Virus record (IMG/VR): IMGVR_UViG_3300020048_000104
Coordinates: 1 to 64,000 of that record
DNA length: 64,000 nt
DNA from: a virus
Lineage: Duplodnaviria; Caudoviricetes
Reading direction: 5' to 3' (one strand)
Made by a program: the position numbers and the translations under genes. Shown here piece by piece: positions 7,484 to 43,914 of the stretch; the stretch's first letter is position 1, and each line of letters begins with the position of its first letter. The notes beneath the pieces are model-generated. The model was not told where the DNA came from. It ran no database searches and saw only the letters and a program-made list of their open reading frames with translations.

Positions 7484-7486
7484 AAA

Positions 7487-7699: not shown

Positions 7700-7814
7700 T
7701 GAAAAGAAAATACTACGAGGGGTCAGTTAATGAAAACAGGAGATATAACAGCGTGTCGAGGTATTGGTGATCAGTTAGCTTCTTATACATCATAATAATT
7801 TAAAAGTATAAACA

Positions 7815-18684: not shown

Positions 18685-18686
18685 TT

Positions 18687-21893: not shown

Positions 21894-21916
21894 CTTTACA
21901 GTAAAAATAATTAGAT

Positions 21917-24663: not shown

Positions 24664-27600
24664 ATGTTACAGCCGAAAAAGTCTACGTTTTTACAAGATC
24701 TTAAAAAACATGAAGATCAATTAATAAAAGATGGTAAAATAGATGATCCTAAAGTTCTCGAAGAACAATTAGGAGGTATTCCTGAAAGAGTATCATCTAT
24801 AGATGTGTTATATCCTAATAAATCACCTGAAGAATTTGAGAATTTTGAAGAATATATGCCTACTCAAACAGTACGTAGTGGTCAATATTCAACAGAACAG
24901 TTATCTAATATACGTGCTGAGAATCAATCTAATTGGGAACAAGCTGGTAATGCATCTGCTAGATTTGCATTAAATATTGTTCCTTCTATTGTATCAGGAT
25001 TCGCATCTATGTTAGATATTCCTGGTTACTTTGATGCTGAACATGCTGCAACTAATGATCTAGTAAATACAGTAGAAGAATGGAAACAACAAGTAAATCA
25101 AGAAATAGCTCCTATTTATTTAGAAAATCCTGATACTCCTATGGACCTTGGGGATTTTGCATGGTGGATGGATCGTGGAGAAGGACTAGCAGAATCAGTA
25201 GCTTCTTTTTTAGTACAAGGTGCTGCTATGGGTGCTGGAGTTGGTGCTTTAGTAAAAGGTGCTAATGCATTCAATAATGCTTCTAAATTAGCTAAATTAG
25301 TAGGAGCAAGTGCTAAAACACAAAGTAAAGTAGGTACTGTCGCAAATATATTTGTTGAAAAAGCAGGTACATTAACTAATGCTATTGCTTTAAATCAATC
25401 AGAAGCTGTATTAGAAGCAACAAGTGTATATAACGATACTAAAACTTATTGGCTTGATAAAGGTTACTCTATGGAGGATGCTAAGAAACAAGCAGCTATA
25501 GGAGCATCTACAACAATGAATATGAATAGAGCTAACATTCTATTAAATATTACATCTGCTTACATGTTCATGACACCAATGAAACTAGCTAGGAAATTAG
25601 TAGATCCTGTTAGTAGAGCTAATACACTTAAATCATTAGTTGCTGAAGGTTCTCAAGAAGCATTAGAAGAACTTATCAATCACTCAGCATCACAAGCAGG
25701 TAAAGCTCATGGTAAAGGTGAGGAGTATGGTTTTAATGATGCTATTAAAGATATGAAATCAGCTGAAGGTATTGAAGCTGCTTTATTAGGTGCTTTTGGA
25801 GGTATTGCTCAAACAGGTGGTAGTATTGCTTTTAAACATTCTAAATATGGTACTGGTTCTGCTGTAAATAAAGAAACAGGTGAAAGAGAATCAGCTTATA
25901 CTCAACAAACTAACAGATACGAAAAACAACAAAAAGTAATAGAAGATTTAAAAGCATCTGGTGTTAAGAGTTTTGATGTATTGAATAATCTTGCTTATAC
26001 AATGAAGTTAGGTCAAGATATGGCTGATGCTCAAAATAATAATGATATAGATAAGTACAATCAGTTACAAGCTGAATTATTCGAAACAAAAGCATTAACA
26101 GCATTCCAATCAGGTACTACTCAAATATTAGAAGACTTGATTAGGTCTTCTGCTGGAGAAGATGGTGAAACAGGAATATCAAAAGAGCAAGTTAACGAAG
26201 CTATTTCTAATTTGAGAGAGTTAGAAGCTGTGTATAACAACTATGAGAATTTTGAAAATGTTGATGATTTATTTTTCAACAGAGCTAATAAAATTCGTAC
26301 AGAAAGAATATTACGTTCTCAAAAAGCAAATCAGATAGAAACTAAAATGAATCTTCAAGCAACTGCTGAACAAATTGCTAAGAAGTATAAATTCAAAGTA
26401 GATAAAGAAGTAGTATATAAAAAAGAAGGTGTTCAGACAGGTACTGAAACACTTACTACAGAACAACCTATTACATTTTCATTGGAAAACTTAGGAGATA
26501 ATCCTGGTACTACAGAGGATAATAGAAAAGTGTACGATGCTTTCGTAGAAGAATTATCTAATACAGAAGTATATAAGAATGCTCAAGAACAAGATCTTAC
26601 TGTAGAAGAAACAGAAAACTTATTAAACGGTTTAAATGAGAAATTCGTATCACTTAAATCTAAAGAAGGTCAAGAAAAAGCTAAAGTTGAGAAAGCTGAA
26701 AAAGCAATTGAGTCAGAAAGAATGTCTAAAATATTACGTGATGATTTCGAAGATTTGGATGAATTACGTAAAATGGCTGCTGAAACAAAAGATGATAATG
26801 TTAGACGTAAGGCTGAAAAGAAAATAAAGACTATTGAAACAAATCGTGCTATTGAAGCTCAACAGAAAAAAGACGATACTGTATTCAATAAGTATAGTAC
26901 AGCTATTGCCAAAACAGATAGTAGTCCTGAAGGTAAAGCTGAGTTTGAAAAATTAAAAGCAGAGATAGCAAAATTGAAAAACTTATCTCCTGCTTTAAAA
27001 CAAAGATTAGCTGATTCTATTGATGCTCGTCAAAGAAACATGGATGCAGGTATGATGTCAGATGAAAAGGTTACTAAACCAAATCCTTCTGATGAAAATA
27101 CCGTAGACTTATCTGAATTGATAACAAATTCTAAATTACCAGAAGATTTTGTAACAGATGATGTTGAAGAAAACATAGAAGCTGAAATAGCAGATGCTGT
27201 TAAAGAAGTATATGAAAAAGACCGTAAACCTCAACTTAATGAAAAAGGTGACTTAGAATACGACTTTGATCGTTCTGAACAAGGACATGATAAAGGTGCA
27301 TTCTTAGCAAGAGATTTTGTACAAAACGAATTTAGTGGTAAAGTTACTAGAGAAGATATAGACAATGAACTTAATGAAGTAAATCCAGATATATTAAATC
27401 CTGATACGTTAAATGAAGGTACTAAAATTACTATTAAGGTAGATGATGATTATGATGGTGATGTTTATGTAGGTGACACTAAAGAAAAAATGCCTTGGTC
27501 TGAAAGGAAAAAGCAAATAGGTAATAATCCTGATACCATGCGTGATGAAATACCAATGGTTGTTGTTGACAATACTGGTAAGAAATTATTTCATATACAC

Positions 27601-30600
27601 GATGTTAACTGGATTAATGAAACTAATGTATATGGTGATATAGAATCCGATAGAGATGCATTAAGAGCTATTAGAGATAAAGTATTAGCTAGTGGAACAA
27701 GTGGTGTAGAAACATCTATTACAAGTAAATCAGCAGGTATATTATTTACTACAGCTAAAGGAGAATCTGTATTATTAAAAGATGGTATGCCTGATCCTAA
27801 TTTACAATTAGTAGTAGGTAAAGATAATGCATTTACTGATAATTCTGTAGATAGAGAATCACTACTTAATAAGAAAATCAGAGATGGTCAATTGTATGCT
27901 ATTATTCCTGTTGGTAAAGAGAAGATAGCTATTCCTTTACAGCGTACTCAGTTGAAAAACAATCCTGAAATATACAATACTATTGTTAAAGCTATAGAAG
28001 CATATTTAGATCCTGAGAATAATCAGGAATTTATAGAAGGTGTAGCTAAAGTAGGATCTAAATTAGATGTTTCTGATTTATCCAATTTATCTAAATTCAT
28101 ATCCCAATTTGTATATTTATATCCTTTGGAAAAAAATGAATCTTTAGTTGATGTAGTATCTCGTTCTTCTGAAAAATTCAATAGACAAAATTCAATAATA
28201 TCAATTACTGGTAACTCTATAGAATTTTGTAAACCAGGTATTAGTAATTCATGGGGAAGTATATCAACAAACACACCTGCTAATATGCTTCCTGCTTTAT
28301 TGAAAAGACTTAAATATGTATTGAGTGATGTTAAGACACATGCTAAAAAAGATAAAAATACAGGTAAAGTAATAACTACAGATGTTGCTGTTGTTAATGC
28401 TGAAGGACAAGTAGTATCTAAACCATATAGAGAATTTATTGGTGAAAACTTTAAATCTAATGTGTTATCTACAAAGATAAATACTAAAGATGGTGTTAAA
28501 TATGTATATAGTATTCAACAGAATATTACATTTGATACAAGTTTTGCTCCTGTTCAAAAGAAACCTGTTATTGCTACAACTACTCAATCTACAAATACTC
28601 AAGAAGCTGATGTAGAATCAGAAATTGTTGATAATGCTTTAAAACAACAATTAGATAATGATGTTAAACAAGTAGTTGAAGATACACAAACATATCCTAC
28701 TGAAAAATTAATTAATGATTTAGCTGATTTGAAAGCAGGTAACTTAAAAACATTTGGTGAATCTGCTGAAGATGCACCAGATCAAAAAGAAGTTAATTAT
28801 ACGATATACATATTTGAAAACGCACTTAGAATACGTAAAGAAGCTAATAACACAACTGATTTATCACAATTAATTAATAATGATAGAAAGATTACTCTGG
28901 ACTCAGATGATGTTTCTAATGATGATGATACGGATTTCCAATTAATTCCTGAAACAAATGTTAAAAATGCTGTTAACGATGCTATTTCTGAAATGACTGT
29001 TAAAGGTATTAGTCTTCGTCAACAAAATTCATTAATAGGATATATAGGTTCTAAAATAATTAAAGCAAGTATAGATAAATTACAAGAAACAGGAAAGTCT
29101 AAAGTTTCTATTAATGACATATTTGATGAGGTAGAAAATGATTTAAAGAAAGATTATCAGACATACGTAGATAACATACTTCCTAATAAAGCAGGTAGAG
29201 TTAAAGCAATTCTTGATGACTTTGCTAAAGTTAAACAGTTAACTATTGCTAAAATAGAGTTAATGAACACTGGTACATTAACTTTAAAAGAGAATAACGA
29301 TGCTGCTGAAATAGAATCTGATGATATTACAACATCTGTTTTATCTGATGAGGAAATGGATATGTCAGATGAAGCATCTGGAGGATTAGAAAATGTATTA
29401 CATAGTGACGATTGGACTTTTACACTTGATTCTAAATCAACAGCTTCTGCTAATTTGAAAAAGTTTTTAACTTTTGTAGAAGACAAAGAAGACGGATTGA
29501 CTAAGTTTAATGAATTAGGATTTCCTGAAATTATAGAGTTTGATGTTGTTTATAATACGTTACATGAATTACTAGCAGGATTACCTGCTAACTATGATAA
29601 AATGTTAGCTACGTTAGAAGCACATACAAATAAATTCCCATGGTTACAAACAGTAATAGAACGACTAGATGATGCTCCAGATCAAATAAGAAATGAATTT
29701 GTTTCTGATATGGCTAAACATGCTATTACAATGAAGTTTATTCTTTGGAATAAATTACAAAACGGTAAATATGTATTGTTTACTAAAGATGCCAATTCTG
29801 CATCTACTCAAAAAAGATTACTTACAACATGGAATTATAATATTACAGATGGTAATAATCCTTATTCTATTTTAAAAGTAGATGATAGTGGTACTTATGT
29901 GTACGATAGAACTAAAATAGAACCTTTAGTAGCATTAGCAAAGGAATGGGAGAACGCAACAGTAGATAATCTTCCTACTAATGATGAGTTGTTAAAATGG
30001 CTAAATGCTTTTGGTATTACTGTTAGTGAAGAAACACTTAATGAATTAAGATTAGGTAAATTTAAAAATAAAGGAACATTAACTTTCCAAAGATTGTTTA
30101 CTGCTCATAACGGATTGGTAAAAGTATTAGCAACACAGATTGACAAGTATTCTGAGAAAACTAAATTTGATGATACTAAAATAATAAATGATACTGTTAT
30201 TCAATCACTTGCTACAATGGAAGCAAGTAATGCAGAAAACATATTCAGTAACTCATTTAACGCAGGAGGTAAAACAATTTACACATTTAGTAATAACAAG
30301 TATGTAATTAACAGATTCCGTGATTTAAAAGAAGATGCTCAATTACGTGCTGATTTAGAGAATGTTCCTTTTATAAAAGGTAGTTTGTGGTTGAATGAAT
30401 TAAATAATAATCCTGCTTTCAATGAGCATTTTGGAATAGACTATTTATCATTAGAAGCAATTAAAAAAGAATTTACTCCTTCTAAAGATAATCGTAAATT
30501 GAATAATTTAACAGAAGACGAGCATGAGGTTATTAAATTAGCTATGTTCTTTAATAATTACAATAATAGACAAGTGTCATTTTTCTATCCTACTATGTCA

Positions 30601-32328
30601 GATAAGACTACAATGATGGTAGTTAATGCTTTAGCTAGAAAGATAGAAGTAAATGATGATTTTGAATTAGCTGATGACAAAGTTGTTGAATTATATGATG
30701 CTATAGTTATGCCTGAAATACAACGTATGCTATCAGAAAAGTCTGATAACATTGCAGGATATAAACCAAACTTCTTCTATTTTATTCCTTCTTTAAATGA
30801 AGTCACTGTTACTATCAATGGTAAAGAAAAAACAATAGTAGAGCATGTATTAAGTTCTAATGGTGAAATTACAGATGATTTAAGAAATATTATTCTTGAA
30901 GAATTGAAAACAACTTTTCAACAATTAACAGAAGATAAAATTGATGAGTGGGTAGAATTAGGTGTAGGTGTTAATAATGCGTTCTTAAACAGTCCTTACA
31001 TGGATAACGTAGCAGAAGGATTGACTAAACCTAAAGCTGATGATAAAGTAAGTCAGAAAGTAAGATACGCAGCTACTGACTATGTATTTAATTATTTAAT
31101 AGCAAATGCAGAGATGTTCAAAGTATCTATTGGAGATCCTGCTTTATACGCAAAATTTAAAGATGGTAACACTGTTAAGCAAAATCTGGAATCGACTTTT
31201 GGAAATATTGGAAAAAGATTGGCAGGAGATATAGCTCCTGGTATTGAATTAGCTGATTCTGAAAAGAACGAGTATTATCAAATATTTATGAATGATACAA
31301 CAACACAAAGTAAAGCGTATCTTAATGAAATATTTGATAAAGTATCTGAAAACACTAAAAAAGAATATAGTAAAATTAAAGGTTCTGATGCTCAAGAGTA
31401 CACTACTTGGCAAGAGCATTTATATGTATTGAATAAATTAGGTAGAATATCTAAAAAGCAACATACTGATTTTAGTGATAAATTACGAAAAGGAGAAGAG
31501 TTAGATTTCAATGAGTTGAATCTTGTACTACAACCTATGAAGCCTGTTTACGTAGGAAATAGATTAGAGAAATTAGCTGATCGTAGAATCTATATCAAGT
31601 CATCTTCTTTTCCTTTGATTCCTCAACTTACAAAAGGATTACAAATTGATAAGTTGCGTGTACAAATGGAACAGTTTGAAAGAAGTAAAAACAGTACAGT
31701 TCGAGCATCTTTCAATACTGCTAATAAAGTAGGTAGTGTTGTACAAGCATTAGATGTATTTGATACTAATGGTAACGTATTAGATGTTAACATCACAGAT
31801 GCTAATGTATTGAAATTACAACGTAAGAACTTTAGGATTCAACAAGACGTACCTTATGACCATGAGAAATCAGCTGTTAACATAGGTACTCAGGAACGTA
31901 AATTGTTATTCAATAATATCCTTAGTATTTCTAATTTTGACTATAACGGTAAAAAGCTAACAGGTGCTGAACTAAAATCAAAGTATGATGATTTGTATAA
32001 AAAAATGTTTGAGCATAAGCGTACATTGTTAGAAAAGGAATTAGGATTACTTGAAGATGTATCTGAAGAAATTAATCCTAAAGACTTTTTATCTATTCGA
32101 GAAAGTAGTACATTTACAGCATTGGAAGAAATGGAGAAAGCAAGTGAAGCTATCAAATCTCCTGTTGCTAAATCTAAACTTAAAAACGAATTACAAGATA
32201 AGATGGGTACTAAGCAATTTGCAAGAGCTCAATATGTTAATAAGAATTTTGATAAAATAATAGAGAAATTAATGAATGCTAAAGTAAATGTATTCTTTGA
32301 TGAAAACATAGATAAAAAATGTGAATAA
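24664..32328 (+). CDS. Giant virion protein; C-terminal region carries the N-terminal (beta-like) part of the virion RNA polymerase
   Basis: 2554 aa. N-terminal Gly/Ala hydrophobic helices and EGSQEALEE ejection-protein motif. C-terminal KRLAGDIAPG, DAQEY, LQPMKPVY, YIKSSSFPL, RIQQDVP and GTQERKL resemble crAss vRNAP blocks. Confidence 0.65.
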   Translation: MLQPKKSTFLQDLKKHEDQLIKDGKIDDPKVLEEQLGGIPERVSSIDVLYPNKSPEEFENFEEYMPTQTVRSGQYSTEQLSNIRAENQSNWEQAGNASARFALNIVPSIVSGFASMLDIPGYFDAEHAATNDLVNTVEEWKQQVNQEIAPIYLENPDTPMDLGDFAWWMDRGEGLAESVASFLVQGAAMGAGVGALVKGANAFNNASKLAKLVGASAKTQSKVGTVANIFVEKAGTLTNAIALNQSEAVLEATSVYNDTKTYWLDKGYSMEDAKKQAAIGASTTMNMNRANILLNITSAYMFMTPMKLARKLVDPVSRANTLKSLVAEGSQEALEELINHSASQAGKAHGKGEEYGFNDAIKDMKSAEGIEAALLGAFGGIAQTGGSIAFKHSKYGTGSAVNKETGERESAYTQQTNRYEKQQKVIEDLKASGVKSFDVLNNLAYTMKLGQDMADAQNNNDIDKYNQLQAELFETKALTAFQSGTTQILEDLIRSSAGEDGETGISKEQVNEAISNLRELEAVYNNYENFENVDDLFFNRANKIRTERILRSQKANQIETKMNLQATAEQIAKKYKFKVDKEVVYKKEGVQTGTETLTTEQPITFSLENLGDNPGTTEDNRKVYDAFVEELSNTEVYKNAQEQDLTVEETENLLNGLNEKFVSLKSKEGQEKAKVEKAEKAIESERMSKILRDDFEDLDELRKMAAETKDDNVRRKAEKKIKTIETNRAIEAQQKKDDTVFNKYSTAIAKTDSSPEGKAEFEKLKAEIAKLKNLSPALKQRLADSIDARQRNMDAGMMSDEKVTKPNPSDENTVDLSELITNSKLPEDFVTDDVEENIEAEIADAVKEVYEKDRKPQLNEKGDLEYDFDRSEQGHDKGAFLARDFVQNEFSGKVTREDIDNELNEVNPDILNPDTLNEGTKITIKVDDDYDGDVYVGDTKEKMPWSERKKQIGNNPDTMRDEIPMVVVDNTGKKLFHIHDVNWINETNVYGDIESDRDALRAIRDKVLASGTSGVETSITSKSAGILFTTAKGESVLLKDGMPDPNLQLVVGKDNAFTDNSVDRESLLNKKIRDGQLYAIIPVGKEKIAIPLQRTQLKNNPEIYNTIVKAIEAYLDPENNQEFIEGVAKVGSKLDVSDLSNLSKFISQFVYLYPLEKNESLVDVVSRSSEKFNRQNSIISITGNSIEFCKPGISNSWGSISTNTPANMLPALLKRLKYVLSDVKTHAKKDKNTGKVITTDVAVVNAEGQVVSKPYREFIGENFKSNVLSTKINTKDGVKYVYSIQQNITFDTSFAPVQKKPVIATTTQSTNTQEADVESEIVDNALKQQLDNDVKQVVEDTQTYPTEKLINDLADLKAGNLKTFGESAEDAPDQKEVNYTIYIFENALRIRKEANNTTDLSQLINNDRKITLDSDDVSNDDDTDFQLIPETNVKNAVNDAISEMTVKGISLRQQNSLIGYIGSKIIKASIDKLQETGKSKVSINDIFDEVENDLKKDYQTYVDNILPNKAGRVKAILDDFAKVKQLTIAKIELMNTGTLTLKENNDAAEIESDDITTSVLSDEEMDMSDEASGGLENVLHSDDWTFTLDSKSTASANLKKFLTFVEDKEDGLTKFNELGFPEIIEFDVVYNTLHELLAGLPANYDKMLATLEAHTNKFPWLQTVIERLDDAPDQIRNEFVSDMAKHAITMKFILWNKLQNGKYVLFTKDANSASTQKRLLTTWNYNITDGNNPYSILKVDDSGTYVYDRTKIEPLVALAKEWENATVDNLPTNDELLKWLNAFGITVSEETLNELRLGKFKNKGTLTFQRLFTAHNGLVKVLATQIDKYSEKTKFDDTKIINDTVIQSLATMEASNAENIFSNSFNAGGKTIYTFSNNKYVINRFRDLKEDAQLRADLENVPFIKGSLWLNELNNNPAFNEHFGIDYLSLEAIKKEFTPSKDNRKLNNLTEDEHEVIKLAMFFNNYNNRQVSFFYPTMSDKTTMMVVNALARKIEVNDDFELADDKVVELYDAIVMPEIQRMLSEKSDNIAGYKPNFFYFIPSLNEVTVTINGKEKTIVEHVLSSNGEITDDLRNIILEELKTTFQQLTEDKIDEWVELGVGVNNAFLNSPYMDNVAEGLTKPKADDKVSQKVRYAATDYVFNYLIANAEMFKVSIGDPALYAKFKDGNTVKQNLESTFGNIGKRLAGDIAPGIELADSEKNEYYQIFMNDTTTQSKAYLNEIFDKVSENTKKEYSKIKGSDAQEYTTWQEHLYVLNKLGRISKKQHTDFSDKLRKGEELDFNELNLVLQPMKPVYVGNRLEKLADRRIYIKSSSFPLIPQLTKGLQIDKLRVQMEQFERSKNSTVRASFNTANKVGSVVQALDVFDTNGNVLDVNITDANVLKLQRKNFRIQQDVPYDHEKSAVNIGTQERKLLFNNILSISNFDYNGKKLTGAELKSKYDDLYKKMFEHKRTLLEKELGLLEDVSEEINPKDFLSIRESSTFTALEEMEKASEAIKSPVAKSKLKNELQDKMGTKQFARAQYVNKNFDKIIEKLMNAKVNVFFDENIDKKCE

Positions 32329-32801
32329 TGGAAAAATTATTAAATGAAGTAGAGATCAAAACATTGAATAAGTTTGGTCAGTTTGAATTAACAGCAAGTC
32401 AGACATATTTATTTTTAGCTAACAGAATGAAAACATTATCTTGTTTTGGAGCTGAAAAATTATTTAATGGTGAGTCAGATGGTGAAAGAGATCATTATAG
32501 AAAAATAGAAAAATTCATGAATAATTTAGGATGTGAACTTTCTGTTGAAGCATTAGATAAAGCAGAACATGATATTTCTAATATCAAAGAAGCGTTAGAA
32601 CTAGCTTATGTAATGGAAAAAGATTTACTAGATGCTTATGAAACAGCTGCTAGAAATTCAGAATTATCTTTAAAAGTTGTACTTTTGTTACAAAAATTTA
32701 CAACACATCAGGTATCTGCTGTAGGTGAATTTAGTGACTTGTTAGCACGAATAGAACTTACTAATGATATGTTATTGTTTGATAAAGAGTTAGGTAACTA
32801 A
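32328..32801 (+). CDS. Ferritin-like protein
   Basis: Four-helix pattern. E20, Y27, E53, H56, E97 and Q128 align with E. coli FtnA E17, Y24, E50, H53, E94 and Q127. Ends with the ferritin-type DKEL. Confidence 0.85.
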   Translation: MEKLLNEVEIKTLNKFGQFELTASQTYLFLANRMKTLSCFGAEKLFNGESDGERDHYRKIEKFMNNLGCELSVEALDKAEHDISNIKEALELAYVMEKDLLDAYETAARNSELSLKVVLLLQKFTTHQVSAVGEFSDLLARIELTNDMLLFDKELGN

Positions 32802-32811
32802 ATAGTATAAT

Positions 32812-35800
32812 ATGGCTTGTGAATATTTTGTAAACGGTGAATGGATTTCTGAAAATCAATTTAAAGAAATTTTAATTGGTGATGAATCAGGAGGATTATT
32901 AGATGCTCTTATTAATTCAGGTAAAGTAGAAATGAAAGGATTTCCTACTGTCGATGCTCCTGTACGTGAAACATTAAGAAATAACACAATACCTGTACAA
33001 AAATTACAGGCTATGTTAATTAAAGAAGTGAAGAGTAGAAAAGGTTATCCTATTAATATTCTTTCTGCTCTTGAATTAAATAAGGAAGGTACTGATTTCA
33101 AAATACCACTATGGTCAAGTAACTATGCTGATAAATTTGAAAGTTTATTAACATCAATTGTCAATAACAATGTCATTAAGCAAAAGTTCAATGGACATTC
33201 ATATATCCTCGGATCTGAAGAAGGTTTTACTTTAAAAGAAGGTGACGATGCAGAAAATGAATTAAGTCGCTCAGGGATTGTCTATACTGATTCATTTGAT
33301 CCTAAAATAGGATTACAACCTATGCGAATAGGAGAAAATGGAGAAATATTACCTGCGCAGATTATGATTCCTTTTAATTTTAAAAACAAGGATCAATATG
33401 GTAATAAATTGAAATTGAAAGATTTTATGATTCCTGGTACTAACAAAATAGACTTATCTAAATTAGATCCTAAGATGTTAAAACTGTTTGGGTTCCGTAT
33501 TCCTACACAAGGACACAACTCAATGTCTACTGTAGAAATAGTAGGATTCCTACCAGAAGCATCAGGAGATTTAGTTTTAGCACCTAAAGATTTTACTGTT
33601 CAGATGGGATCGGATTTTGACGTTGATAAATTATACACGTATATGTATAATGTACAACTTAAAGAAGGTAAATTAACTACAGAGTTTTCTGAAGATAACA
33701 TAATTGAAAATGCACAAAACGCAATACTTGATATTCATCACTCAGTGCTTACTAATCCTGATAGTAATATAGTTAGTGCTATATTAAAACCTGATGGGTT
33801 TGGAGATTTTAAAGATTTATCATCTGATGTTGTAGATAATAGGACAACAGCAGGAACATTAAAACAAACATTGACTATCTTATCTGATTCGTATCAAAAA
33901 AAGAAATTTATATCAGGTACAGCAGGTAAAGACGGATGTTTAGGTTATGGTACAAAAGTATTAATGTATGATGGTAGATTTAAAGAAGTTCAAGATGTCA
34001 TAGTAGGAGATCAATTAATGGGTATAGATAGTACACCTAGAAATGTAACATCTTTAAAAAGAGGGGTTGAACAAATGTACATAGTTCAGCAAAAAAGAGG
34101 TATTAATTATCGTGTAAACGAATCTCATATATTGTCATTGAAAGAACATATTCCTGCTTTATACAGTAAACCAGTAATCAATAATGTTAGAGTTATTGAT
34201 AAATCTAAACTATTGAGAGAAAAACAAATTATAACTAATAACATAAAAGTAAGTGATTATTTATTAGCAAATAATGATTTTAAACGTAGAACAAAAGGTT
34301 ATAAAAATACAAGTATTGAATTTCCTGATACTGATACTCCTATATCTCCTTATTATTTAGGACTGTGGTTAGGTGATGGTGTTACTAAAGACATAAAAGA
34401 AATAGCAACTATTGATGAACTTATAGAAAATTATTTAGCTCTTACATTTGGTATTAGTAGTGTGTATGGACCAAATAACATATCTAAACGAGTATTTGAT
34501 AATGGTTTAAATGATAATTTTAAAAAAATATTTAATGTATCTAAGTGTGGTTTGTTACCAGGTTGTAAACATATACCTGATAGTTATTTATATACATCAA
34601 AAGAAAACAGATTATCTTTATTAGCAGGTTTAATTGATAGTGATGGTCATTATTGTAAAATAAATAAACAATATACATTTTCAAATATTAATGAGAAACT
34701 AATAAATCAAGTTGCTTTTCTTACAAGAAGTCTTGGTTTTTATACAGCTATTTATAGAAAAGAAGCTCAAATTTCAAAAAGAGGATTGAATGAGCAAGTA
34801 TCTTTTAAAGTTAATTTTGTAGCAACTTATGATATACCTGTATTATTAGAAAGAAAAAAACAACTCTCTAATTCAGTATTCAAAAACAGATTATATACAG
34901 GAATTACTTTGAAAAAAGATGTTGTGGATAATTATTACGGATTTACTTTAGATGGGGATCATTTATTTATGTTAGAAGATTTTACAGTAACTCACAATAC
35001 TGGATCATTCTCATTAGATGCTACTTTTAATGCTATTATTCAAGGTAAGGATTTATTCTTTTTTAAACCTGAAACAGTAGGTTTAGATAAGTTTGGTAAG
35101 TATTCAAGAGATGAACAAATAGCAATGACTAGAGATACTTTTACATTAGGTAATTTATCATCTGATGGAGATTTGTCTAATCCTTATAATTTAAAATCTC
35201 AAAAGATACTTAATTCTGTAAATGGAGATATTAATAAATTATCAAAAGAACAAAGAGCTAAATTGAAATTCAAATCGGATGTGATACAAGGATTACAATC
35301 ATCTGCTGTGGATAATGCTAATGAGGAAATATTAGATAAAATTAATATTACTTCTCAAACATTTGATGCTATTCGTGGAATGGCTCAATTAGGATTTGAA
35401 GAATCTGAAATCGTAGGATTGATGACTCAAGATATTATGTGGGAATATGTTGATTTTGTTAAATCAAGAAAATCATCATTAAAAGAAGAATTTGCATCTG
35501 GAGATTCTTATGAAGATTTCTTATCTATAAAGAAAAAACAATATGATCCTAATGGTGATTTTGATAAATTAACACAAGAACAAATCAATACATTAAGTTC
35601 TAAGTCAGGTACTCAATTAATTGATGTCCTTATCAGTAAGCAGTTAGTAGATGTAAAAGAAGGTAGTAGTACACCATTGTCTAATTTAGAACAATTTGCT
35701 ATACTTGATAAATTCATAAAATTTAGTGAAGTAGGTAAAGCTATTAAAACAGTACAGTCTACTATCAATACTGAATCATCAGGACTTCCTAAAAACTTAT

Positions 35801-38019
35801 TAGAAACTAATGCTAAGATAGAACAAATTAAAAGACTTCCTTTAAGTCCTATTGTTGGAGCTACTAAGCTATTAGGAGAGTTTGATAATAATAATAATTT
35901 AGTTAATCCTACTACTATAAATGGATTTGCTGCTTATCACGGTGCTATATTAGCAGATAAGATGTATGCTAAATATTTCCCATATACTACAAATGGATTC
36001 ACTACTCAATACAATGAGTTATTAGAACATATCGCAGGAGAAGAAGTATCTGATTCTAAACGAGTAGATATTAAAATCAATGCGTTTAAAGAAATGCGTT
36101 CTTATTTATTTACAAGTGGTGCTTTAAATATTTACGATGGTAATGCTGAAGGTGTTCAAAGAAGACTATTTATTGATATTCCTGGTGAACATCAATCACT
36201 ATCATCTATACTAAAAACCATAAAAGGACAAAATAAACAATGGTTTAATAACAATCAGTTTTTGAATAAGTTATTGTTTGAGCCTAGAGTTGATGGTAAA
36301 GTATCAAGAGTTGATTTCCAAGCAGCGACTGGAGAAAACTATGATGAACAAGCTATTTATTTAGGATTCATGCAGTTGTTTCAATTAGACACACAAGTAT
36401 TAGATACTAAATTTAATGGAGAAGATTATACACCTGCTAGACTAGCACACGAATTGGTAATGTATGCTTACTTAGAAGGAGGTTCTCAAGGATCTAAATC
36501 ATTCATGAAATACATTCCTATTGAGTATTTAAAAAGTCAACGATTTGGAGAAGGATTACAATCATTAAGTAGTTTTGACTACAATTCTATTTTTGGAGGT
36601 TCTGGAGTAGTAGCGAAGTATGTCAATCCTTCTCGTTTTACAGTACAATATTTTCAAAACAATCCTAATAATGCTAAGAAATTAACATTAGAAGATATAG
36701 ATACCAATCATAAAAGCATTACAGCAGTTGATAATTTCAAATTAAAACCTGATGCTATTGCTGGTAATATGGTATCGTACACGAATGAATTAGGTGAGAA
36801 AACAAATACTCAAACAGGGTTTGTTGCTATATATGATTCTAAATTAAAAAGTAAATACGCATTGTATCAATATGATAATGTGGAACATGTATATAAACGT
36901 ATTCCTGTTGTATCAGGTGCTTATGGATTTAAGCAATATAACATCAACGGTGATATTACAAAACCTGTACAAACAGCAAATGAGATAGTTGCACCAAATA
37001 CAATAAATGTAAAACAACCATCAACACCATCTATGAATCCTGTTCCTGTACAACCTGTACAAGGCTACAATCCTAACATAGTGAATAATAATAATCCTAT
37101 TGAGAAAGTAGGAGGTTTAGAGATCAATCGTAAATTAGGTAGTGATGCAGAAATAATAACAGACTTCTTTTTACAGATTGCTAATAATCCTGCTGTTCCT
37201 AAGTATTATCAGGAATTAGCAAAGGAGTATTATAAATTAAAATTACCTCATGGTATTAAATTACAAGGAACAGATAAAGGAAAAGGATCTTATAATGCTG
37301 GTACTAATGTTTTAAAATTAAATAAAGAAGAGTTAAACGTAGAAGGTGCCTTAGAAACAGCTATTACTATATTGCATGAATCTACTCATATTTTTACAAG
37401 TGCTGTAATAAAGAATTATGGTAATTTAAAAGGAGAACAGAAAGAAGCTGTTACACGTTTGAACGGTTTGATGAATAAGTATATAGCTTTTCTTAATAAA
37501 TCTGGTAAAGGACCTCAAAGAGAAGCATTTAGACAAGCATATAATGATTGGAAGAATGCAAAAGAATCAGGTGATAATACAATGATTCCTAGTCCTGAGT
37601 TTACAAAAGATAATCTAAATGAGTTTTATGGTTCTATTAAATTAGAAGAGTTTGTAGCTATGGCACAAACATCTAAAGAGTTCCAGCAAATACTTAATAA
37701 TGTAATAGATTCTGATGGTAAATCATTCCTTAGTAAAATGATGGAGCAAATAGGAAAGATTCTAAAATCAATAGGTATAAACCTTAATAAAAATTCATTA
37801 CTGTATAGTACATTAGAAGGTGTTCAAAACTTAATTGATGTGAATCAGAAGAATGTAGAATCGTCTACAGAAACAGAACCTGCTCAGCAACTTACTGATT
37901 TAGTAAAACCAAAATTTAATCCTTTTGATGGAAGAAATCTTAATCCTAATGATTTGATTGATGAACAATTGTTACCTTTACAGGAAGATTTAGAAGAATT
38001 TAAACGAATGTGTAAATAA
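32812..38019 (+). CDS. Virion RNA polymerase catalytic (beta'-like) part with intein and C-terminal zincin-like domain
   Basis: GFRIPTQGHNSM and catalytic GSDFDVDKLY (DFDVD at 33613-33627), an intein at 33937-34998, and HESTH...EEFVA near the C-terminus. Confidence 0.85.
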   Translation: MACEYFVNGEWISENQFKEILIGDESGGLLDALINSGKVEMKGFPTVDAPVRETLRNNTIPVQKLQAMLIKEVKSRKGYPINILSALELNKEGTDFKIPLWSSNYADKFESLLTSIVNNNVIKQKFNGHSYILGSEEGFTLKEGDDAENELSRSGIVYTDSFDPKIGLQPMRIGENGEILPAQIMIPFNFKNKDQYGNKLKLKDFMIPGTNKIDLSKLDPKMLKLFGFRIPTQGHNSMSTVEIVGFLPEASGDLVLAPKDFTVQMGSDFDVDKLYTYMYNVQLKEGKLTTEFSEDNIIENAQNAILDIHHSVLTNPDSNIVSAILKPDGFGDFKDLSSDVVDNRTTAGTLKQTLTILSDSYQKKKFISGTAGKDGCLGYGTKVLMYDGRFKEVQDVIVGDQLMGIDSTPRNVTSLKRGVEQMYIVQQKRGINYRVNESHILSLKEHIPALYSKPVINNVRVIDKSKLLREKQIITNNIKVSDYLLANNDFKRRTKGYKNTSIEFPDTDTPISPYYLGLWLGDGVTKDIKEIATIDELIENYLALTFGISSVYGPNNISKRVFDNGLNDNFKKIFNVSKCGLLPGCKHIPDSYLYTSKENRLSLLAGLIDSDGHYCKINKQYTFSNINEKLINQVAFLTRSLGFYTAIYRKEAQISKRGLNEQVSFKVNFVATYDIPVLLERKKQLSNSVFKNRLYTGITLKKDVVDNYYGFTLDGDHLFMLEDFTVTHNTGSFSLDATFNAIIQGKDLFFFKPETVGLDKFGKYSRDEQIAMTRDTFTLGNLSSDGDLSNPYNLKSQKILNSVNGDINKLSKEQRAKLKFKSDVIQGLQSSAVDNANEEILDKINITSQTFDAIRGMAQLGFEESEIVGLMTQDIMWEYVDFVKSRKSSLKEEFASGDSYEDFLSIKKKQYDPNGDFDKLTQEQINTLSSKSGTQLIDVLISKQLVDVKEGSSTPLSNLEQFAILDKFIKFSEVGKAIKTVQSTINTESSGLPKNLLETNAKIEQIKRLPLSPIVGATKLLGEFDNNNNLVNPTTINGFAAYHGAILADKMYAKYFPYTTNGFTTQYNELLEHIAGEEVSDSKRVDIKINAFKEMRSYLFTSGALNIYDGNAEGVQRRLFIDIPGEHQSLSSILKTIKGQNKQWFNNNQFLNKLLFEPRVDGKVSRVDFQAATGENYDEQAIYLGFMQLFQLDTQVLDTKFNGEDYTPARLAHELVMYAYLEGGSQGSKSFMKYIPIEYLKSQRFGEGLQSLSSFDYNSIFGGSGVVAKYVNPSRFTVQYFQNNPNNAKKLTLEDIDTNHKSITAVDNFKLKPDAIAGNMVSYTNELGEKTNTQTGFVAIYDSKLKSKYALYQYDNVEHVYKRIPVVSGAYGFKQYNINGDITKPVQTANEIVAPNTINVKQPSTPSMNPVPVQPVQGYNPNIVNNNNPIEKVGGLEINRKLGSDAEIITDFFLQIANNPAVPKYYQELAKEYYKLKLPHGIKLQGTDKGKGSYNAGTNVLKLNKEELNVEGALETAITILHESTHIFTSAVIKNYGNLKGEQKEAVTRLNGLMNKYIAFLNKSGKGPQREAFRQAYNDWKNAKESGDNTMIPSPEFTKDNLNEFYGSIKLEEFVAMAQTSKEFQQILNNVIDSDGKSFLSKMMEQIGKILKSIGINLNKNSLLYSTLEGVQNLIDVNQKNVESSTETEPAQQLTDLVKPKFNPFDGRNLNPNDLIDEQLLPLQEDLEEFKRMCK
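33937..34998 (+). mobile_element. Intein with LAGLIDADG homing endonuclease (354 aa) in vRNAP
   Basis: Begins G|CLGYGTKVLMYDG, contains YYLGLWLGDG and LLAGLIDSDG, ends YYGFTLDGDHLFMLEDFTVTHN|T. Confidence 0.93.
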
Positions 38020-38021
38020 TT

Positions 38022-41000
38022 ATGGCAAACAAAAACTGTCCTTTAGAAAGCAATACTGAGTGGGTTGAAATGAAACGTCAATTAGGGTATGATTTAGCTG
38101 CATATACTTATGTAAAAAGAAAATGGGAAGTACCTCAACTTACTAATGAAAAAGAATTATCTAAGCGAATAGGATTTACTAACAAAACAGTTAGTGAAAA
38201 CAAATATTACGAGTTAAGTATTAAACTAGGTGGTTTTAATGAATTACGTAAAAATGCTCATTTCTTAAAGACTGTTAAAAAGTATAGTAAGAATGGTAGA
38301 ATGGTTCGTGATGTAGAATTACAGATGAATTATTTATCTATTGCTGAAGAACAAGCTAGAAGAATGATGGCAGCAAACAATCCTATTTACGAAGTTCCTG
38401 CTGATATTGCTAGAAAAGAAGAAGAGAAAAAAGCAAAAAAAGAAACACCTTCTCAAGTAAATCCTGGGTATTATTTAAAACCAGGAGATAGTAACTATAC
38501 TGTTAGAAATGGTGAAGTTGTTAATTTAGCAGATGCTAAAACAATGGATGATGTAGATTATCTTATTCCTACTGCTAAAGATCCTATTAAAGATGCTGAG
38601 CAAGTACGTAAAAGAAAACTACAAAAAGAGATTGCTGTACTTACAACTAAAAGTAATAATGCAAAAGATTCTTTTGTGGTACGTTCTTTATTGACACAAA
38701 TAGAATCATTAAAAGCTATTTTAGAAAAAGCAGATGAGCGTATTGGAGCAACAGAAAATATAGAAAAATATGATAATGTATTACAATTTGCAGATTCTCA
38801 ATTAAATGAAATAGAAGGAATATTAAGTGATGATGCAATATCTTCTGAGAATATTTTATACATAGAACGTATATTAAACTTATGGGAGAAAGCAAGTAAT
38901 TTTAAAGGAGATCCTTCTGAGCATATTATTTTAGATGAGTTTGAATTTCAATCAGATGAAATAAAAAAACTATTTAGAAATATAGGAGCACGAGTAGAAG
39001 ATTATCAAAGTAGATTAGGTGTTATACGTGAAGAACACGTGGTAGCTTTCATGCGTGAATATTCTAATAATAAAACTCTTACTAAAGAAGAAATATTTGC
39101 TGATTTTGCAGATAGTGGTACAATGAGTGCTTTGACATTGAATCTAGGTAGATTGGATGATCCTATTTTAAAAGTAATATTTTCAGCTGTTGAAGAAATG
39201 CATGTTAACGCTAGATTTGAAATCAATGAAGTATTCAAAGATATTGATTTAGTAACAAGTAAAGCATTACCTAAATTAAAAAGATTATCAGGTAATAAAA
39301 ATCCTTGGAGATTCTATGAACAAGTAACTAAAGATGGTTTGGGTACAGGTAAAATAGTACATAGATTTTCAGACGATTTCTTTAAGACAATTAAGGATTT
39401 GCGATACAAGGCATTTTATATGACTGATAAAAAAGGTAAATCTACTTCTAAAGCATCTGATGTGGAAAGATACTATAAGTGGTTGGAGGAAAACACTATT
39501 ACTTTTGATGCTCGTAAATTATTTGATGATAGTCATTATGATGAAGTTGAATTTGATGATAAGTATTTATTTACTAATCAAAAATATTCAGATGCTGAAA
39601 AACAAGCACATATTAATCAACTTAAAGCACAATTAGGAGAAAAAGGATATACTCAATATTTTGAATCAATTAGTAAGAAAATAGAATTATTTAAACGTGA
39701 TAGAGCTGTTGCGTGGGGTAGCATTGTTAATGATTCTACTTTATCAAAAGAACAACAGGATGCTTTATTTACTGAATGGAATATAGAAAATTCACCTTTT
39801 TGGAGTTCTGAATTAATAGAAAATCCTACAATGCGTAAAAAGCCAGGAGGTAAAGGATTTTATAAAATTGATAGTTCTCGTAAATACACAGAACAAATAC
39901 CATTAAGAACTACTAAATCTGGTAAAACTACTAAATGGTATGATGGAAATTTTGAAAAAATTGAAGCAGATGAAGATCTATTAGCATATTATAATGTAAT
40001 GTTGAATACATTAAAAGATATGAGATCTTTACTTCCTGCTAACAAACGTGACTCAATGGGTATTACAGACATTCCTAAAATGAAACAGTCATTAGCTGAT
40101 ATGTTTGGAGAAAAAGGAATGAGGATGGGTGTTAAACCTTTTTGGGAAAGACTTCAAGAAATGTCTAAAACTACTGATTTAGCTAATACTACAACAGCAG
40201 ATATAGATCCTCTTACTGGAGAACGTATAAATGAACAATCTTTAAGATACATTGAAGATACTACTGAAAAAGTAAATTCTATAGTACAAACTAAAATAAT
40301 TCAACACAAGCAAAATACAGGAACTGTTCCTTCATCAGCATTGATACAAAAGTTTAAAGATGAGGCTAGAAATGAAGTATCACAAGAATACTCATTTGAT
40401 TTGACTAAACTGCTAAAAGCATATTCTACAATGGCATTAGAATATAAACATAAGTCTTTAATAGAACCTCAAATAAAAATGCTAGAAAAAGCATTTAAAA
40501 GTAAAAAAGAAATAATTACTAATAACTCAAGCAAACCTGTTGTTAAAATCAATAGTGACGGTACTGAAACAATACAAAGTAAAGAAGGATTAGCAAATGC
40601 TAAAAGTGCATTGGAGTTCTATTTAGATACTAAGATGTGGGGAACAGGAGGTCGTAAAGTAGAAGGTGTGAGTAAAAAGAAAACTTATACTATTTCTGAA
40701 AAGAAAAAGAAAGCTGATTTAGAAGCGTTGTATGAAGCTACTTCTGATAGTAAAGAACAAGAACATTTACAATCAGAAATAGATAAACTAGGAGGATTTA
40801 CATCAGCTTCTGGTGTTGGTGATATGTTATTAAAATTAATGACTTATAAAGGGTTAGCTTATAACTTAGGTTCTGCTTTTAGTAACGTTGGTTTTGGTAT
40901 TATTTCTAACTTGAATGAAGCATCTGATGGTAGAAACTATAATATGGCTCAAATGCGACATGCTTATTTACTTACTACTAACTCAATAGGTAAAAATTTA

Positions 41001-42185
41001 TCAGGAAATAAATGGGATGGTGCTGGTAAAAACGCATTAAAAATTCGTACACTTATGGATAAGTACGATTTACTTAAAACATCAGATCAAGAAATATACG
41101 ATTTAAGTACAAAATCTACACTGACTAAAAACTTAGGTAGATTCGGACCAATGAGTTTACAACAATCATCAGAGTATTTGAATTATGCTCCTGTTATGGT
41201 AGCTATGATGATGAACGCTAAAGCTACAGATCCTGATGGTAAAGAAACTACTTTGTGGGATGCTATTGATGAGAATGGTGAGTTAAGAGAAGGTTATTCT
41301 GATGCTGGTTTAAATGAATCACGATTTGTACTTAAAGTAAAACGTGTAATTGAAATGAATCACGGTGATTATAATAATCAACAACAAGCAAAAGCAACTA
41401 TTACAGGTAGAATGTTATCTCAATTCCGTACTTGGATGTTTGAAGGATTTGCTAACAGATTTGAAAAACAAAAAGTAGATGATATACTGAGTTATAATAA
41501 TAAAGATATAGATACACCATTTCTTAGAAAAGGTAGATATAGAAGTTACACAGCAGGTCAGTTAGCTACAGCAGGTGCTACATTAGGTACTACTTTTATG
41601 CCTGGTATAGGTACTGTATTAGGAGGAGGAGCTGGGTTTTTAATTGGTAAATTTGCAGGAATGCAAACTGAGGAATCTGCTATAAATGATACTTTGTTTA
41701 CATTAAAACAGATGGCTAGAAAGCTAATGTTTAAACCTACTCAATTTCAGGATAGATTTAATGAAGTAGATGCTGCTAATATGCGTAAAAATATGACAGA
41801 GTTATATATGCTTATGACTATAGCAGGATTAGGTTTACTTATAGCTGCTGTAGGAGGAGGTGAAGATGATGATGAGCGTATGTCAAGATCAGCTAATTTC
41901 TTATTAAACCAAATGACAAGATTAGAAACAGATATAGCATTTTATACTAATCCTTTGGAATTTGAGAAGTTAACAAAAACAGCTGTACCTATGGCTCAAT
42001 TAGTAGATGATACTCGTAAATGGTTTGTTGATGTATTCAATTTATTTGATGGAGATCCTGAAAATGATGTGTTTAGATCAGGTATATTTAAAGATAAATC
42101 TAAATTGTTAGTACACACAGGAGAATTAATTCCTGGTATATCTACAGCTATTAAATTAGCTAGGTCTACTTCTCAAGTTTATTAA
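38022..42185 (+). CDS. Giant virion cargo protein with C-terminal membrane-type helices
   Basis: 1387 aa with glycine zipper GATLGTTFMPGIGTVLGGGAGFLIG and LYMLMTIAGLGLLIAAVGG. Last gene of the crAss cargo cluster. Confidence 0.6.
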   Translation: MANKNCPLESNTEWVEMKRQLGYDLAAYTYVKRKWEVPQLTNEKELSKRIGFTNKTVSENKYYELSIKLGGFNELRKNAHFLKTVKKYSKNGRMVRDVELQMNYLSIAEEQARRMMAANNPIYEVPADIARKEEEKKAKKETPSQVNPGYYLKPGDSNYTVRNGEVVNLADAKTMDDVDYLIPTAKDPIKDAEQVRKRKLQKEIAVLTTKSNNAKDSFVVRSLLTQIESLKAILEKADERIGATENIEKYDNVLQFADSQLNEIEGILSDDAISSENILYIERILNLWEKASNFKGDPSEHIILDEFEFQSDEIKKLFRNIGARVEDYQSRLGVIREEHVVAFMREYSNNKTLTKEEIFADFADSGTMSALTLNLGRLDDPILKVIFSAVEEMHVNARFEINEVFKDIDLVTSKALPKLKRLSGNKNPWRFYEQVTKDGLGTGKIVHRFSDDFFKTIKDLRYKAFYMTDKKGKSTSKASDVERYYKWLEENTITFDARKLFDDSHYDEVEFDDKYLFTNQKYSDAEKQAHINQLKAQLGEKGYTQYFESISKKIELFKRDRAVAWGSIVNDSTLSKEQQDALFTEWNIENSPFWSSELIENPTMRKKPGGKGFYKIDSSRKYTEQIPLRTTKSGKTTKWYDGNFEKIEADEDLLAYYNVMLNTLKDMRSLLPANKRDSMGITDIPKMKQSLADMFGEKGMRMGVKPFWERLQEMSKTTDLANTTTADIDPLTGERINEQSLRYIEDTTEKVNSIVQTKIIQHKQNTGTVPSSALIQKFKDEARNEVSQEYSFDLTKLLKAYSTMALEYKHKSLIEPQIKMLEKAFKSKKEIITNNSSKPVVKINSDGTETIQSKEGLANAKSALEFYLDTKMWGTGGRKVEGVSKKKTYTISEKKKKADLEALYEATSDSKEQEHLQSEIDKLGGFTSASGVGDMLLKLMTYKGLAYNLGSAFSNVGFGIISNLNEASDGRNYNMAQMRHAYLLTTNSIGKNLSGNKWDGAGKNALKIRTLMDKYDLLKTSDQEIYDLSTKSTLTKNLGRFGPMSLQQSSEYLNYAPVMVAMMMNAKATDPDGKETTLWDAIDENGELREGYSDAGLNESRFVLKVKRVIEMNHGDYNNQQQAKATITGRMLSQFRTWMFEGFANRFEKQKVDDILSYNNKDIDTPFLRKGRYRSYTAGQLATAGATLGTTFMPGIGTVLGGGAGFLIGKFAGMQTEESAINDTLFTLKQMARKLMFKPTQFQDRFNEVDAANMRKNMTELYMLMTIAGLGLLIAAVGGGEDDDERMSRSANFLLNQMTRLETDIAFYTNPLEFEKLTKTAVPMAQLVDDTRKWFVDVFNLFDGDPENDVFRSGIFKDKSKLLVHTGELIPGISTAIKLARSTSQVY

Positions 42186-42231: not shown

Positions 42232-43914
42232 TTATAAACTAATAGCTTTTATAACATTAGGAAATTCATTTCTGAATAACTCTAATATATTTAATGCTAT
42301 TTCTCTATGTTCTAGTTGTGTATGTTCATCACATCTAATTTGAAAGTAATGAATCCATGATCGTAAACTTCCTTTCATATACAAAGTCGTACCTACTGTT
42401 AATGGTAATACCATTCTAGCACATTCTTTAGCAACTCCATTAGCAAGTAAATTATCATATAATCTTTGTCCTTCTGCTATATGGTTTTTTACCATTTTAC
42501 TAGCACTAACATTATGAATAGTAGGATTAAATACTTCCATGCTAGATTGTCTATTTGTTGCACCAGCTCTTCTTAATTCAACTAATTCGAAATCTTGTAC
42601 TTCAGAATACCTTTGTGAATTATGTACAATTATACCATTAGCTACATAATTATGATTTTCATTATAAATTTCTAAATCGTAAGTTTCTATTTCTCCAACA
42701 TACTCGATTGATTCTATTATCTGCCACTCCACAGTTAAAGTATTACCTTTACTTTTCATTCTCCATTTTTTAGGATCTCCTGCGATATTATGTTTTTCAT
42801 TGTGACATTTTTTACAAAGAACTTGTATATTATTCTTATCATAAGCTAATGAAATATCTTCAAAAACAGGTATGATGTGATCTAGTTCTAATTTTTCATT
42901 AGTTTGACAATTTTTACATTTATAATTAGACTCTATTAATTTTTCAGCTCTTATGGTATTACACCAATCTGCTATTTTCAATCTTTCTGTTCTACAACTA
43001 CCTCCTTTGTATAAATTACTTTCACTACCTTTTTTAGCACTTTTTCTCATTTTTTCAATTGTTTCTATACTATGAGGTTTATTTTTATATCCGAATTTAT
43101 TTTTATTCCATACCTCTGTGTATTGAGATACTTCTTTTTTAGTAAACCCTATATTATGTAATTTTAACCATTTTCTTATAGTATGATAACTAACATTAGC
43201 ACTATCAGCTATTCCTTGTACCCCAGTTTTATTTTTAATAACTATTGCTTTTTGAGCAATAAGCCATTCTTTAGATTGATGTAAAGGAATACCATTAGTG
43301 GCAATTATACCTTTTTTAGACATTGTTATTTTAGTACCATGTGTTTCTAAACCTATTATGTCTTCTAAAGAGTAAAATCCGTTTTTTGTTAAAAATTTAT
43401 GTTCTTTAGTACATACTATTTCTTTTCCTCCAGATGTTATAATTTTAAAACAAGGCTTTATTCCTGTTTTAAACACCTCTTTAATTCTTGACGTAGTAAA
43501 TTTTTCACCATCATAAAATCTAACTAAAGGTAATCCATTATTTTTAGTATGATTATTAGGTTTTGATTGAAGATTATACAAATGGCTTATTTTTCTTTTA
43601 TACGTTGCTCCACTAGGTAATTTTAAAGTTATCATACTATCACCAGCTATACAAAATTCCTGAAATGAAAATGAACGATGTCTTAATATCTGTGCAGCAA
43701 TAGCTCTACTTGTTTTAATTTCAACAGTAATATCTACCATTTCAAAAGGACTCCAATGCTTGTGTTTAATTAAATAATTTAACAGTCTATCAGCTGTTTC
43801 CATATTTAATTGATTCTCAGGATTACTAACTCTAGCTGTATAAACAACTAATTCTTCAGGTGTAGACACTCCTTCTATAAGAGGCTGTGTCATTGAAATT
43901 ATTTTTGTTTCCAT
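42232..43914 (-). CDS. thyX: FAD-dependent thymidylate synthase ThyX with intein (215 aa after splicing)
   Basis: HKHWSPFEM, RAIAAQILRHRSFSFQEF|SQRY signature interrupted by the intein, KECARMVLP, GSLRSWIHY, QLEHR. Confidence 0.93.
   Translation of the reverse strand: METKIISMTQPLIEGVSTPEELVVYTARVSNPENQLNMETADRLLNYLIKHKHWSPFEMVDITVEIKTSRAIAAQILRHRSFSFQEFCIAGDSMITLKLPSGATYKRKISHLYNLQSKPNNHTKNNGLPLVRFYDGEKFTTSRIKEVFKTGIKPCFKIITSGGKEIVCTKEHKFLTKNGFYSLEDIIGLETHGTKITMSKKGIIATNGIPLHQSKEWLIAQKAIVIKNKTGVQGIADSANVSYHTIRKWLKLHNIGFTKKEVSQYTEVWNKNKFGYKNKPHSIETIEKMRKSAKKGSESNLYKGGSCRTERLKIADWCNTIRAEKLIESNYKCKNCQTNEKLELDHIIPVFEDISLAYDKNNIQVLCKKCHNEKHNIAGDPKKWRMKSKGNTLTVEWQIIESIEYVGEIETYDLEIYNENHNYVANGIIVHNSQRYSEVQDFELVELRRAGATNRQSSMEVFNPTIHNVSASKMVKNHIAEGQRLYDNLLANGVAKECARMVLPLTVGTTLYMKGSLRSWIHYFQIRCDEHTQLEHREIALNILELFRNEFPNVIKAISL
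42619..43653 (-). mobile_element. Intein with HNH endonuclease (345 aa) in ThyX
   Basis: Starts F|CIAGDS, block B TKEHKF, ends TYDLEIYNENHNYVANGIIVHN|S. Contains CKNC...ELDHIIP...NIQVLCKKCHNEKH (HNH). Confidence 0.92.

Follow-up and report, generated by a model that had tools for sequence, protein, structure and literature searches.

We analysed a window of 64,000 nucleotides (positions 1 to 64,000 of the IMG/VR virus record IMGVR_UViG_3300020048_000104, Caudoviricetes), with attention to three giant genes whose products, p2554, p1735 and p1387, carry cysteines (Cys) beside the termini that face one another. The viral record sampled by this window is 73 kb long, AT-rich and of crass-type organisation, and its closest isolates are the Flavobacterium psychrophilum phages (FpV/FPSV), Cellulophaga phage phi14:2 and the Bacteroides crAss phages. 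On the plus strand, the structural gene block terminates in five large open reading frames (ORFs), p1068, p900, p2554, p1735 and p1387, of which the last three are treated here as a chain (Table 1).

The first two members of this chain share the virion RNA polymerase between them. Residues 2133-2461 of p2554 align to residues 856-1167 of the 2180-amino acid (aa) protein of phi14:2, which we take to be the crystallised virion polymerase, and residues 60-300 of p1735 align to residues 1174-1393 of the same protein (E 3e-20) and also to crAss001 gp50. Both halves are covered contiguously by PHROG 16227, a profile of 4401 positions, and the DxDxD metal motif that marks crass-type virion polymerases is present as GSDFDVD, invariant in 30 p1735 homologues. 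Since p2554 carries the N-terminal half and p1735 continues the homologue from residue ~1174, the virion RNA polymerase is, on these alignments, cut in two in the window phage, the split point lying between residues 1167 and 1174 of the phi14:2 homologue; no read-through frame joins p2554 and p1735. The third member, p1387, matches phi14:2 gp76 and the 1596-aa protein of FpV21. A sequence search of the PDB returned matches to the intein only for p1735 and none for p2554 and p1387.

Cysteines at the inner termini

Leaving aside the intein of p1735, the three giants contain five Cys in 5,322 extein residues (0.09%), and four of these five sit next to the four inner termini, 2 to 6 residues away. 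Briefly, p2554 ends ...DKKCE and has the penultimate Cys2553 (codon 32320-32322) and one internal residue, Cys1189 (IEFCKPG); p1735 starts MACE (Cys3, 32818-32820) and ends ...RMCK (Cys1734, 38011-38013), its other four Cys (376, 579, 585 and 615) all lying inside the intein; p1387 starts MANKNC and has Cys6 (38037-38039) as its sole Cys. The outer ends of the chain (N-terminus of p2554, C-terminus of p1387) are free of Cys. The probability that chance alone places at least four of five Cys no more than 6 residues from one of the four inner termini is ~2e-9. As a control, Cys makes up 0.97% of residues in the 46 other ORFs of the window, where it occurs within six residues of the N-terminus in 2/46 and of the C-terminus in 2/46. 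The terminal Cys pattern is confirmed as real and well beyond chance.

These exact counts bear out a sequence-only reading of the window, which had noticed the inner-terminal Cys (KKCE/MACE and RMCK/MANKNC), the single other Cys in about 5300 extein residues and the free outer ends. The same reading had described the giants as consecutive, which holds for p1735 and p1387 but not for p2554 and p1735, separated by a 157-aa ferritin-like ORF that it had passed over. It was right that a link at this place would hold two RNA polymerase halves, given the split located above.

Table 1. Coordinates of the chain members and associated features (window positions unless a locus is named)
Feature	Position	Strand	Remarks
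p2554, first chain member	24664..32328	+	phi14:2 gp78-like N-part and, by alignment, N-terminal half of virion RNA polymerase; phrog_16227
C-terminal extension of p2554, ~residues 2453-2554	32020..32325	+	not in fused relatives; terminates ...FFDENIDKKCE
Ferritin-like ORF, 157 aa, at polymerase split	32328..32801	+	PF00210, E 2.7e-12
p1735, second chain member	32812..38019	+	by alignment, catalytic polymerase half (GSDFDVDKLY); conserved HExxH region
N-terminal extension of p1735, residues 1-54 (MACEYFVNGEWISENQFKE...)	32812..32973	+	not in fused relatives
Intein of p1735, residues 376-729	33937..34998	+	Hint and LAGLIDADG, Cys1 ... HN, +1 Thr
p1387, last chain member	38022..42185	+	hydrophobic C-terminal segments; motif CP(N/L)xxN.EW
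HExxH motif LHESTHIF, C-part of p1735	within 36000-37000		
p1068 and p900, upstream of the chain	18687-24619	+	lysozyme-like N-domain in p1068
560-aa ORF	42232-43914	-	
L010, positions of interest	7330-7800, 15720-16260, 18424-18756		two overlapping-frame breaks and DUF5856 ORF junction

The intein of p1735 (354 residues) is of the LAGLIDADG endonuclease type and sits in the catalytic half of the polymerase, ~100 residues past DFDVD; relatives are contiguous across the insertion site. A p1735 homologue, P0043, has an intein too, and the 91%-identical P0022 has no intein and carries a superfamily 1 (SF1) helicase domain instead. In the C-terminal part of p1735, the HExxH motif is invariant in 30 homologues (alignment A1) and fits the zincin-like protease annotation in crAssphage LMMB.

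Junctions across crass-like phages

We surveyed 34 protein junctions in 26 distinct crAss-like genomes, including IMG/VR loci (28-49% identity), phi14:2, FpV21, crAss001 and a close relative, crAss002, crAssphage LMMB, cr60_1, cr85_1, cr108_1, cr126_1 and cr127_1, and spanning the Steigviridae, Intestiviridae, Suoliviridae, Crevaviridae and unclassified marine phages. At 34/34 junctions the upstream protein has a Cys at most 9 residues from its C-terminus (within 4 at 31/34), and at all 34 the downstream protein has a Cys at position 3-6, the second residue being mostly A, S or G. The outer chain ends lack Cys in the surveyed genomes, with one real exception. A 27th genome, cr10_1, fits the pattern (Cys 11 residues from the upstream C-terminus, MKIIC at the next start) and was left out of the count because its record stops before the next gene is complete. 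An initial locus scan queried with the N-terminal part of p1387 yielded no loci.

Cluster representatives from a large protein database gave a concordant picture. Relatives of the C-terminal part of p2554 have a Cys among their last four residues in 118/119 cases and an N-terminal Cys in 0/119, with 43 internal Cys per 343,869 residues (0.0125%). Among relatives of p1735, a C-terminal Cys is found in 45/45 and an N-terminal Cys in 40/45, and the five proteins that lack the latter begin like truncated gene calls; exactly two Cys are present in 31/46 proteins of this set (window protein included), at lengths up to 2,500 residues, and Cys3 and the penultimate Cys are invariant alignment columns in 30 homologues. 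The full-length relatives of p1387 have a lone Cys at position 3-6 in 18/18 cases, including those with kinase or protease-like inserts. Over all homologue sets, internal Cys amount to 0.003-0.018%. The residues that flank the junctions differ widely, as in LLICGK/MAEVC, NTIC/MACK and SFSCM/MSCG, and the only feature common to all junctions order-wide is the Cys itself. Within clades, neighbouring residues are conserved (MACxYFVNG, CPNKNS.EW, FINKNFDKIVE...FFDEN).

Some near-terminal Cys in this material have no evident partner, namely those of the 861-aa protein of LMMB (L037, 1042-3627; ...SCR), of crAss002 gp30 (L038, 1370-3043), which ends ...FRCGGKKKIA, and of the first giant of L011 (1190), which starts MCPGP. 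The annotated start of crAss002 gp33 (L038, 12065-12170) is probably 32 codons too early, and an internal start, MSCTPSNP, obeys the rule.

The chain genes occur in one to four pieces with at least five differing cut sites, and the Cys pair is always found at the cut. Where the window is split, the fused genes of L005, FpV21 and L013 have a short linker and no Cys. An extra split, NECGI/MSC(R/K)PF, is present in L011 and L015; L007, which is fused and shares 86% identity with L011 as far as the NECGI/MSCRPF break, has no Cys at that place. The cut sites of the window phage and of phi14:2 also differ, and each has its own Cys pair. The Cys layout is kept even in crAss001 and cr85_1, whose first partner gene is encoded on the other strand; in crAss001 it reads gp47 (Cys -3), gp50 (Cys5 and Cys -9) and gp49 (Cys5). 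We therefore place the effect at the level of proteins; translational coupling or a signal at the RNA level was rejected, since the pairs persist across opposite strands, the ferritin-like gene or a 130-nt spacer. The proposal of the sequence-only reading that terminal Cys act as pairs over consecutive proteins is thus strongly supported by order-wide conservation, gain at splits, absence in fused genes, retention between partners whose genes are not adjacent and the verified disulfide with this signature in cyanophage A4 (see below).

Breaks of other kinds behave differently from these cuts. In cr108_1 a break in GSD/YDID (L035, 18131-18449) corresponds to a group I intron (Rfam RF00028, 80 bits) and is free of Cys; the intron interrupts the catalytic motif, and the record annotates both exons as separate proteins. 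Two breaks in the giant gene of L010 have overlapping frames and resemble frameshifts (real or due to assembly error); no M-x-C start follows them, and the only Cys beside them (...RYCRC) belongs to the upstream ORF, in the stretch of its tail where the frames overlap. At the last junction of L010, a 111-aa DUF5856 ORF (E 9e-16) lies between ...IINCI and MKNKC, the second example here of a Cys junction that houses a small gene.

The junction between the polymerase halves (junction 1) was compared, over the window and loci L042-L059, between a split clade, made of the window and 14 IMG/VR loci, and four fused loci. A ferritin-like gene stands between ...KKC[DE] and MAC... in 14/14 split-clade loci and in 0/4 fused loci; in the window its start overlaps the stop of p2554 (TAATG). 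The ferritin-like proteins at this junction have few Cys (0 to 4), none of them terminal. The split clade has also gained ~100 residues that end the first half (FINKNFDKIVE...FFDEN..KKC[DE]) and 54 residues that open the second (MACxYFVNGxWISExQFKE); both extensions, like the ferritin-like gene, are missing from the four fused loci. The extensions probably dock the two halves of the polymerase and so bring the thiols together. Single-chain AlphaFold2 models built from 12-sequence alignments (mean predicted local distance difference test, pLDDT, 49 and 55) predict, at low to moderate confidence, a helical C-extension of p2554 with Cys2553 in a disordered tail (pLDDT <50) and, at low confidence, a hairpin-helix for the N-extension of p1735, with Cys3 in a tail (pLDDT <50) before the predicted beta-hairpin. 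The predicted placement of both Cys in disordered tails lends weak support to bridging.

Two other origins of this junction were considered and rejected. A split intein, which would require Cys or Ser as the first residue of the N-half extension and (H)N, then Cys, Ser or Thr, where the C-half extension ends, does not fit, as the extensions begin ...LGL/LEDVSEE and end ...IPVQ/KLQ with the Cys at their far ends; Pfam revealed no Hint domain outside the intact intein. The 8-nt repeat TGTGAATA that flanks the ferritin-like gene might suggest a target-site duplication, but it merely reflects the Cys-Glu codons of this genome, since relatives read KKCD/MACQ or MACL.

Elsewhere in the window, p1068 and p900 contain no Cys at all, which fits ejected cargo outside the linked chain. 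The 560-aa ORF on the minus strand resembles, by eye, a flavin-dependent thymidylate synthase whose sequence is broken by an intein that carries an HNH-type insertion (CIAGDS ... VHNS). An Rfam scan of the window gave no matches.

A putative disulfide thread and its alternatives

We propose that head-to-tail disulfides between proteins tether the cargo giants and, in the window phage, re-join the split polymerase, a reading that we hold to be probable though by no means certain. Ejected phage proteins are often purged of Cys. The three giants would be crass-type virion cargo, consisting of a polymerase-associated part, the polymerase (here split) and a last protein with membrane-like segments, and this cargo would have been purged of Cys except for one thiol retained within a few residues of every terminus turned towards a neighbouring chain member. 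Within the virion, Cys2553 of p2554 would bond Cys3 of p1735 and Cys1734 of p1735 would bond Cys6 of p1387, and these bonds from C-terminal end to N-terminal start would yield a single linear covalent thread of ~5,300 residues, restoring the topology of the single giant polypeptide seen in relatives. Such a thread could fix 1:1:1 co-packaging and let each protein pull its successor along, or set its turn, during ejection, and thiol reductants of the host cytoplasm could open the links. We infer both the bond and its role in ejection from the Cys pattern; co-packaging at a fixed ratio, ordered ejection and the holding together of the polymerase halves are candidate functions. That p2554, p1735 and p1387 are packaged in the virion is suggested by their homology to virion proteins of phi14:2 and crAss001.

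Known systems give this proposal both a precedent and a contrast. Cryo-electron microscopy of the pre-ejectosome of cyanopodophage A4 (PNAS 2025) revealed a disulfide between Cys1715 of gp27 and Cys5 of gp26 (PMC12002296). According to the record of the Anabaena phage A-4L, gp27 (1717 aa) has Cys1715 as its only Cys and gp26 only Cys5 (MSKHC). As at the window junctions, one protein carries a lone Cys near its C-terminus and the protein after it another lone Cys, around position 3-6, and in the window partners Cys is otherwise strongly depleted (0.09% versus 0.97%) in the same manner; the signature first noticed in the window is thus also that of a verified disulfide. Unlike the window, A4 has one link between two proteins, which form a folded pentameric core, and no RNA polymerase is involved; the window has two putative links, and relatives as many as four; one link of the window would join the polymerase halves, and in the order the pair regenerates at gene fissions. 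A blastp comparison of A4 gp26 and gp27 with the window proteins gave no match with E below 0.7, and the resemblance is, on this comparison, one of mechanism and not of ancestry.

Closer relatives share the layout itself. The phi14:2 homologues (gp78, gp77 and gp76; KC821624) are structural proteins verified by tandem mass spectrometry, and crAss001 virions contain several intersubunit disulfides as well as gp47, gp49 and gp50, which were detected but not resolved (PMC10172136). In both phages these homologues (gp47/gp50/gp49 and gp78/gp77/gp76) are virion-detected and have terminal-only Cys, as in the window. Their polymerase, however, is a single polypeptide, with the split upstream of it; in the window the polymerase itself is divided, with a ferritin-like gene and new extensions at the break, and with an intein. 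The Schitoviridae (N4 gp50-52, DEV gp71-73) likewise eject a giant virion polymerase and partners in which Cys is strongly suppressed, and the purging of Cys from N4-like ejected proteins has been described together with an earlier suggestion that ties it to passage through the periplasm (PMC11445570). Unlike the window chain, the N4-like polymerase is a single chain and essentially Cys-free, whereas the purge in the window spares the termini that face a junction.

Several observations weigh against a disulfide thread. No crass-like phage has yet been seen to contain such a bond, and the packaging of the three giants is deduced from homology. Virions assemble in a reducing cytoplasm and many of the hosts are strict anaerobes. 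We found no thioredoxin, glutaredoxin or Erv/ALR gene in the 73-kb record, a fragment estimated to be 55% complete; the scan for the Erv family was also blank in 14/14 control genomes, so that this blank is uninformative. Given the reducing cytoplasm, the often anaerobic hosts and the lack of a redox gene in an incomplete record, the oxidation step is left unexplained. Many of the surveyed genomes share ancestry, so their junctions are not independent events, and about five distinct split sites are documented. Finally, the A4 proteins have no sequence similarity to the giants, and since the A4 disulfide stabilises a folded pentameric pre-ejectosome, passage through the tail as one chain is without support from this precedent.

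Other explanations of the terminal Cys fare less well. An origin by chance, compositional bias or an artefact of gene structure, such as a TGA stop mutated to TGY and giving a short C-terminal extension, has a negligible probability: this genome is rich in AT, and TGA becomes a Cys codon by a single change, but a stop-codon mutation cannot explain an N-terminal Cys, and the low chance probability in the window, the control ORFs and the recurrence of the pattern in hundreds of cluster representatives all speak against it. We regard as unlikely a metal-bridged clasp, in which Zn, Fe or Cu would be coordinated by the two thiolates, the free chain ends (amino and carboxyl) and Asp/Glu residues close by. 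The tails of junction 1, KKC(D/E)-COOH and NH2-(M)AC(E/Q/K), would offer S, O and N ligands, and the ferritin-like gene at every split-clade junction would hint at iron. Yet this gene accompanies one split type only and the sole solved case of the signature is a disulfide; moreover, each terminus has one Cys, with no conserved His or second Cys, and the flanks vary widely among the 34 junctions, a combination that argues against a metal site.

The terminal Cys might also bond elsewhere, either to the same Cys in a second copy of the protein (homodimer) or to the capsid, the portal or another cargo protein. The three partnerless Cys mentioned above (LMMB, crAss002 gp30 and the first L011 protein) and the several heterologous disulfides of the crAss001 tail are in line with this, but homodimers or third-party partners predict no parity between the two sides of a junction, whereas the two sides strictly co-occur, both Cys appear together at new splits and the outer chain ends lack Cys in nearly all genomes; such partners therefore appear improbable. 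We give similarly little credence to a Cys with no bridging role (acylation or another modification, or a signal for packaging or ejection) at termini docked non-covalently. The clade-conserved residues around the Cys do give the termini the look of docking modules, but the Cys is the only element common to all junctions order-wide, no modification enzyme is evident and the single Cys per side would be left unexplained.

Implications for cargo delivery

A head-to-tail disulfide is already known from one cyanophage. What is new here is a putative multi-link chain kept order-wide, a pair that is regenerated with each gene fission and, in the window, a putative link that joins a split polymerase. 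Literature searches returned no paper describing these Cys in Crassvirales. In the crAss001 atlas, the crass cargo is invisible, the word cysteine is absent and the passages on disulfides cover gp57 and the tail only (PMC10172136).

Crass-like phages have to pack over half a megadalton of protein, among it the polymerase with which infection begins, and to bring it into the host, and the finding bears on the way in which they do so. A simple sequence rule predicts covalent head-to-tail links, corrects start codons (as for crAss002 gp33), tells true protein boundaries from introns and frameshifts, and gives the order of the chain where genes are scattered. It also indicates how a giant gene can be cut into pieces while the function of an unbroken chain is preserved.

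A wider generalisation, possible in our view but rather doubtful, is that throughout the Crassvirales the injected cargo, virion polymerase included, is a disulfide-stitched thread of 0.6 to 1 MDa. Its genes could be cut anywhere provided that a Cys pair (and docking peptides) is supplied; the thread would set both stoichiometry and the order of ejection and be unzipped by the thiol reductants of the host, and, in the clade of the window, the ferritin-like protein encoded at the cut could help to form or protect the link. If this is true, infection would be redox-gated in the most abundant gut phages.

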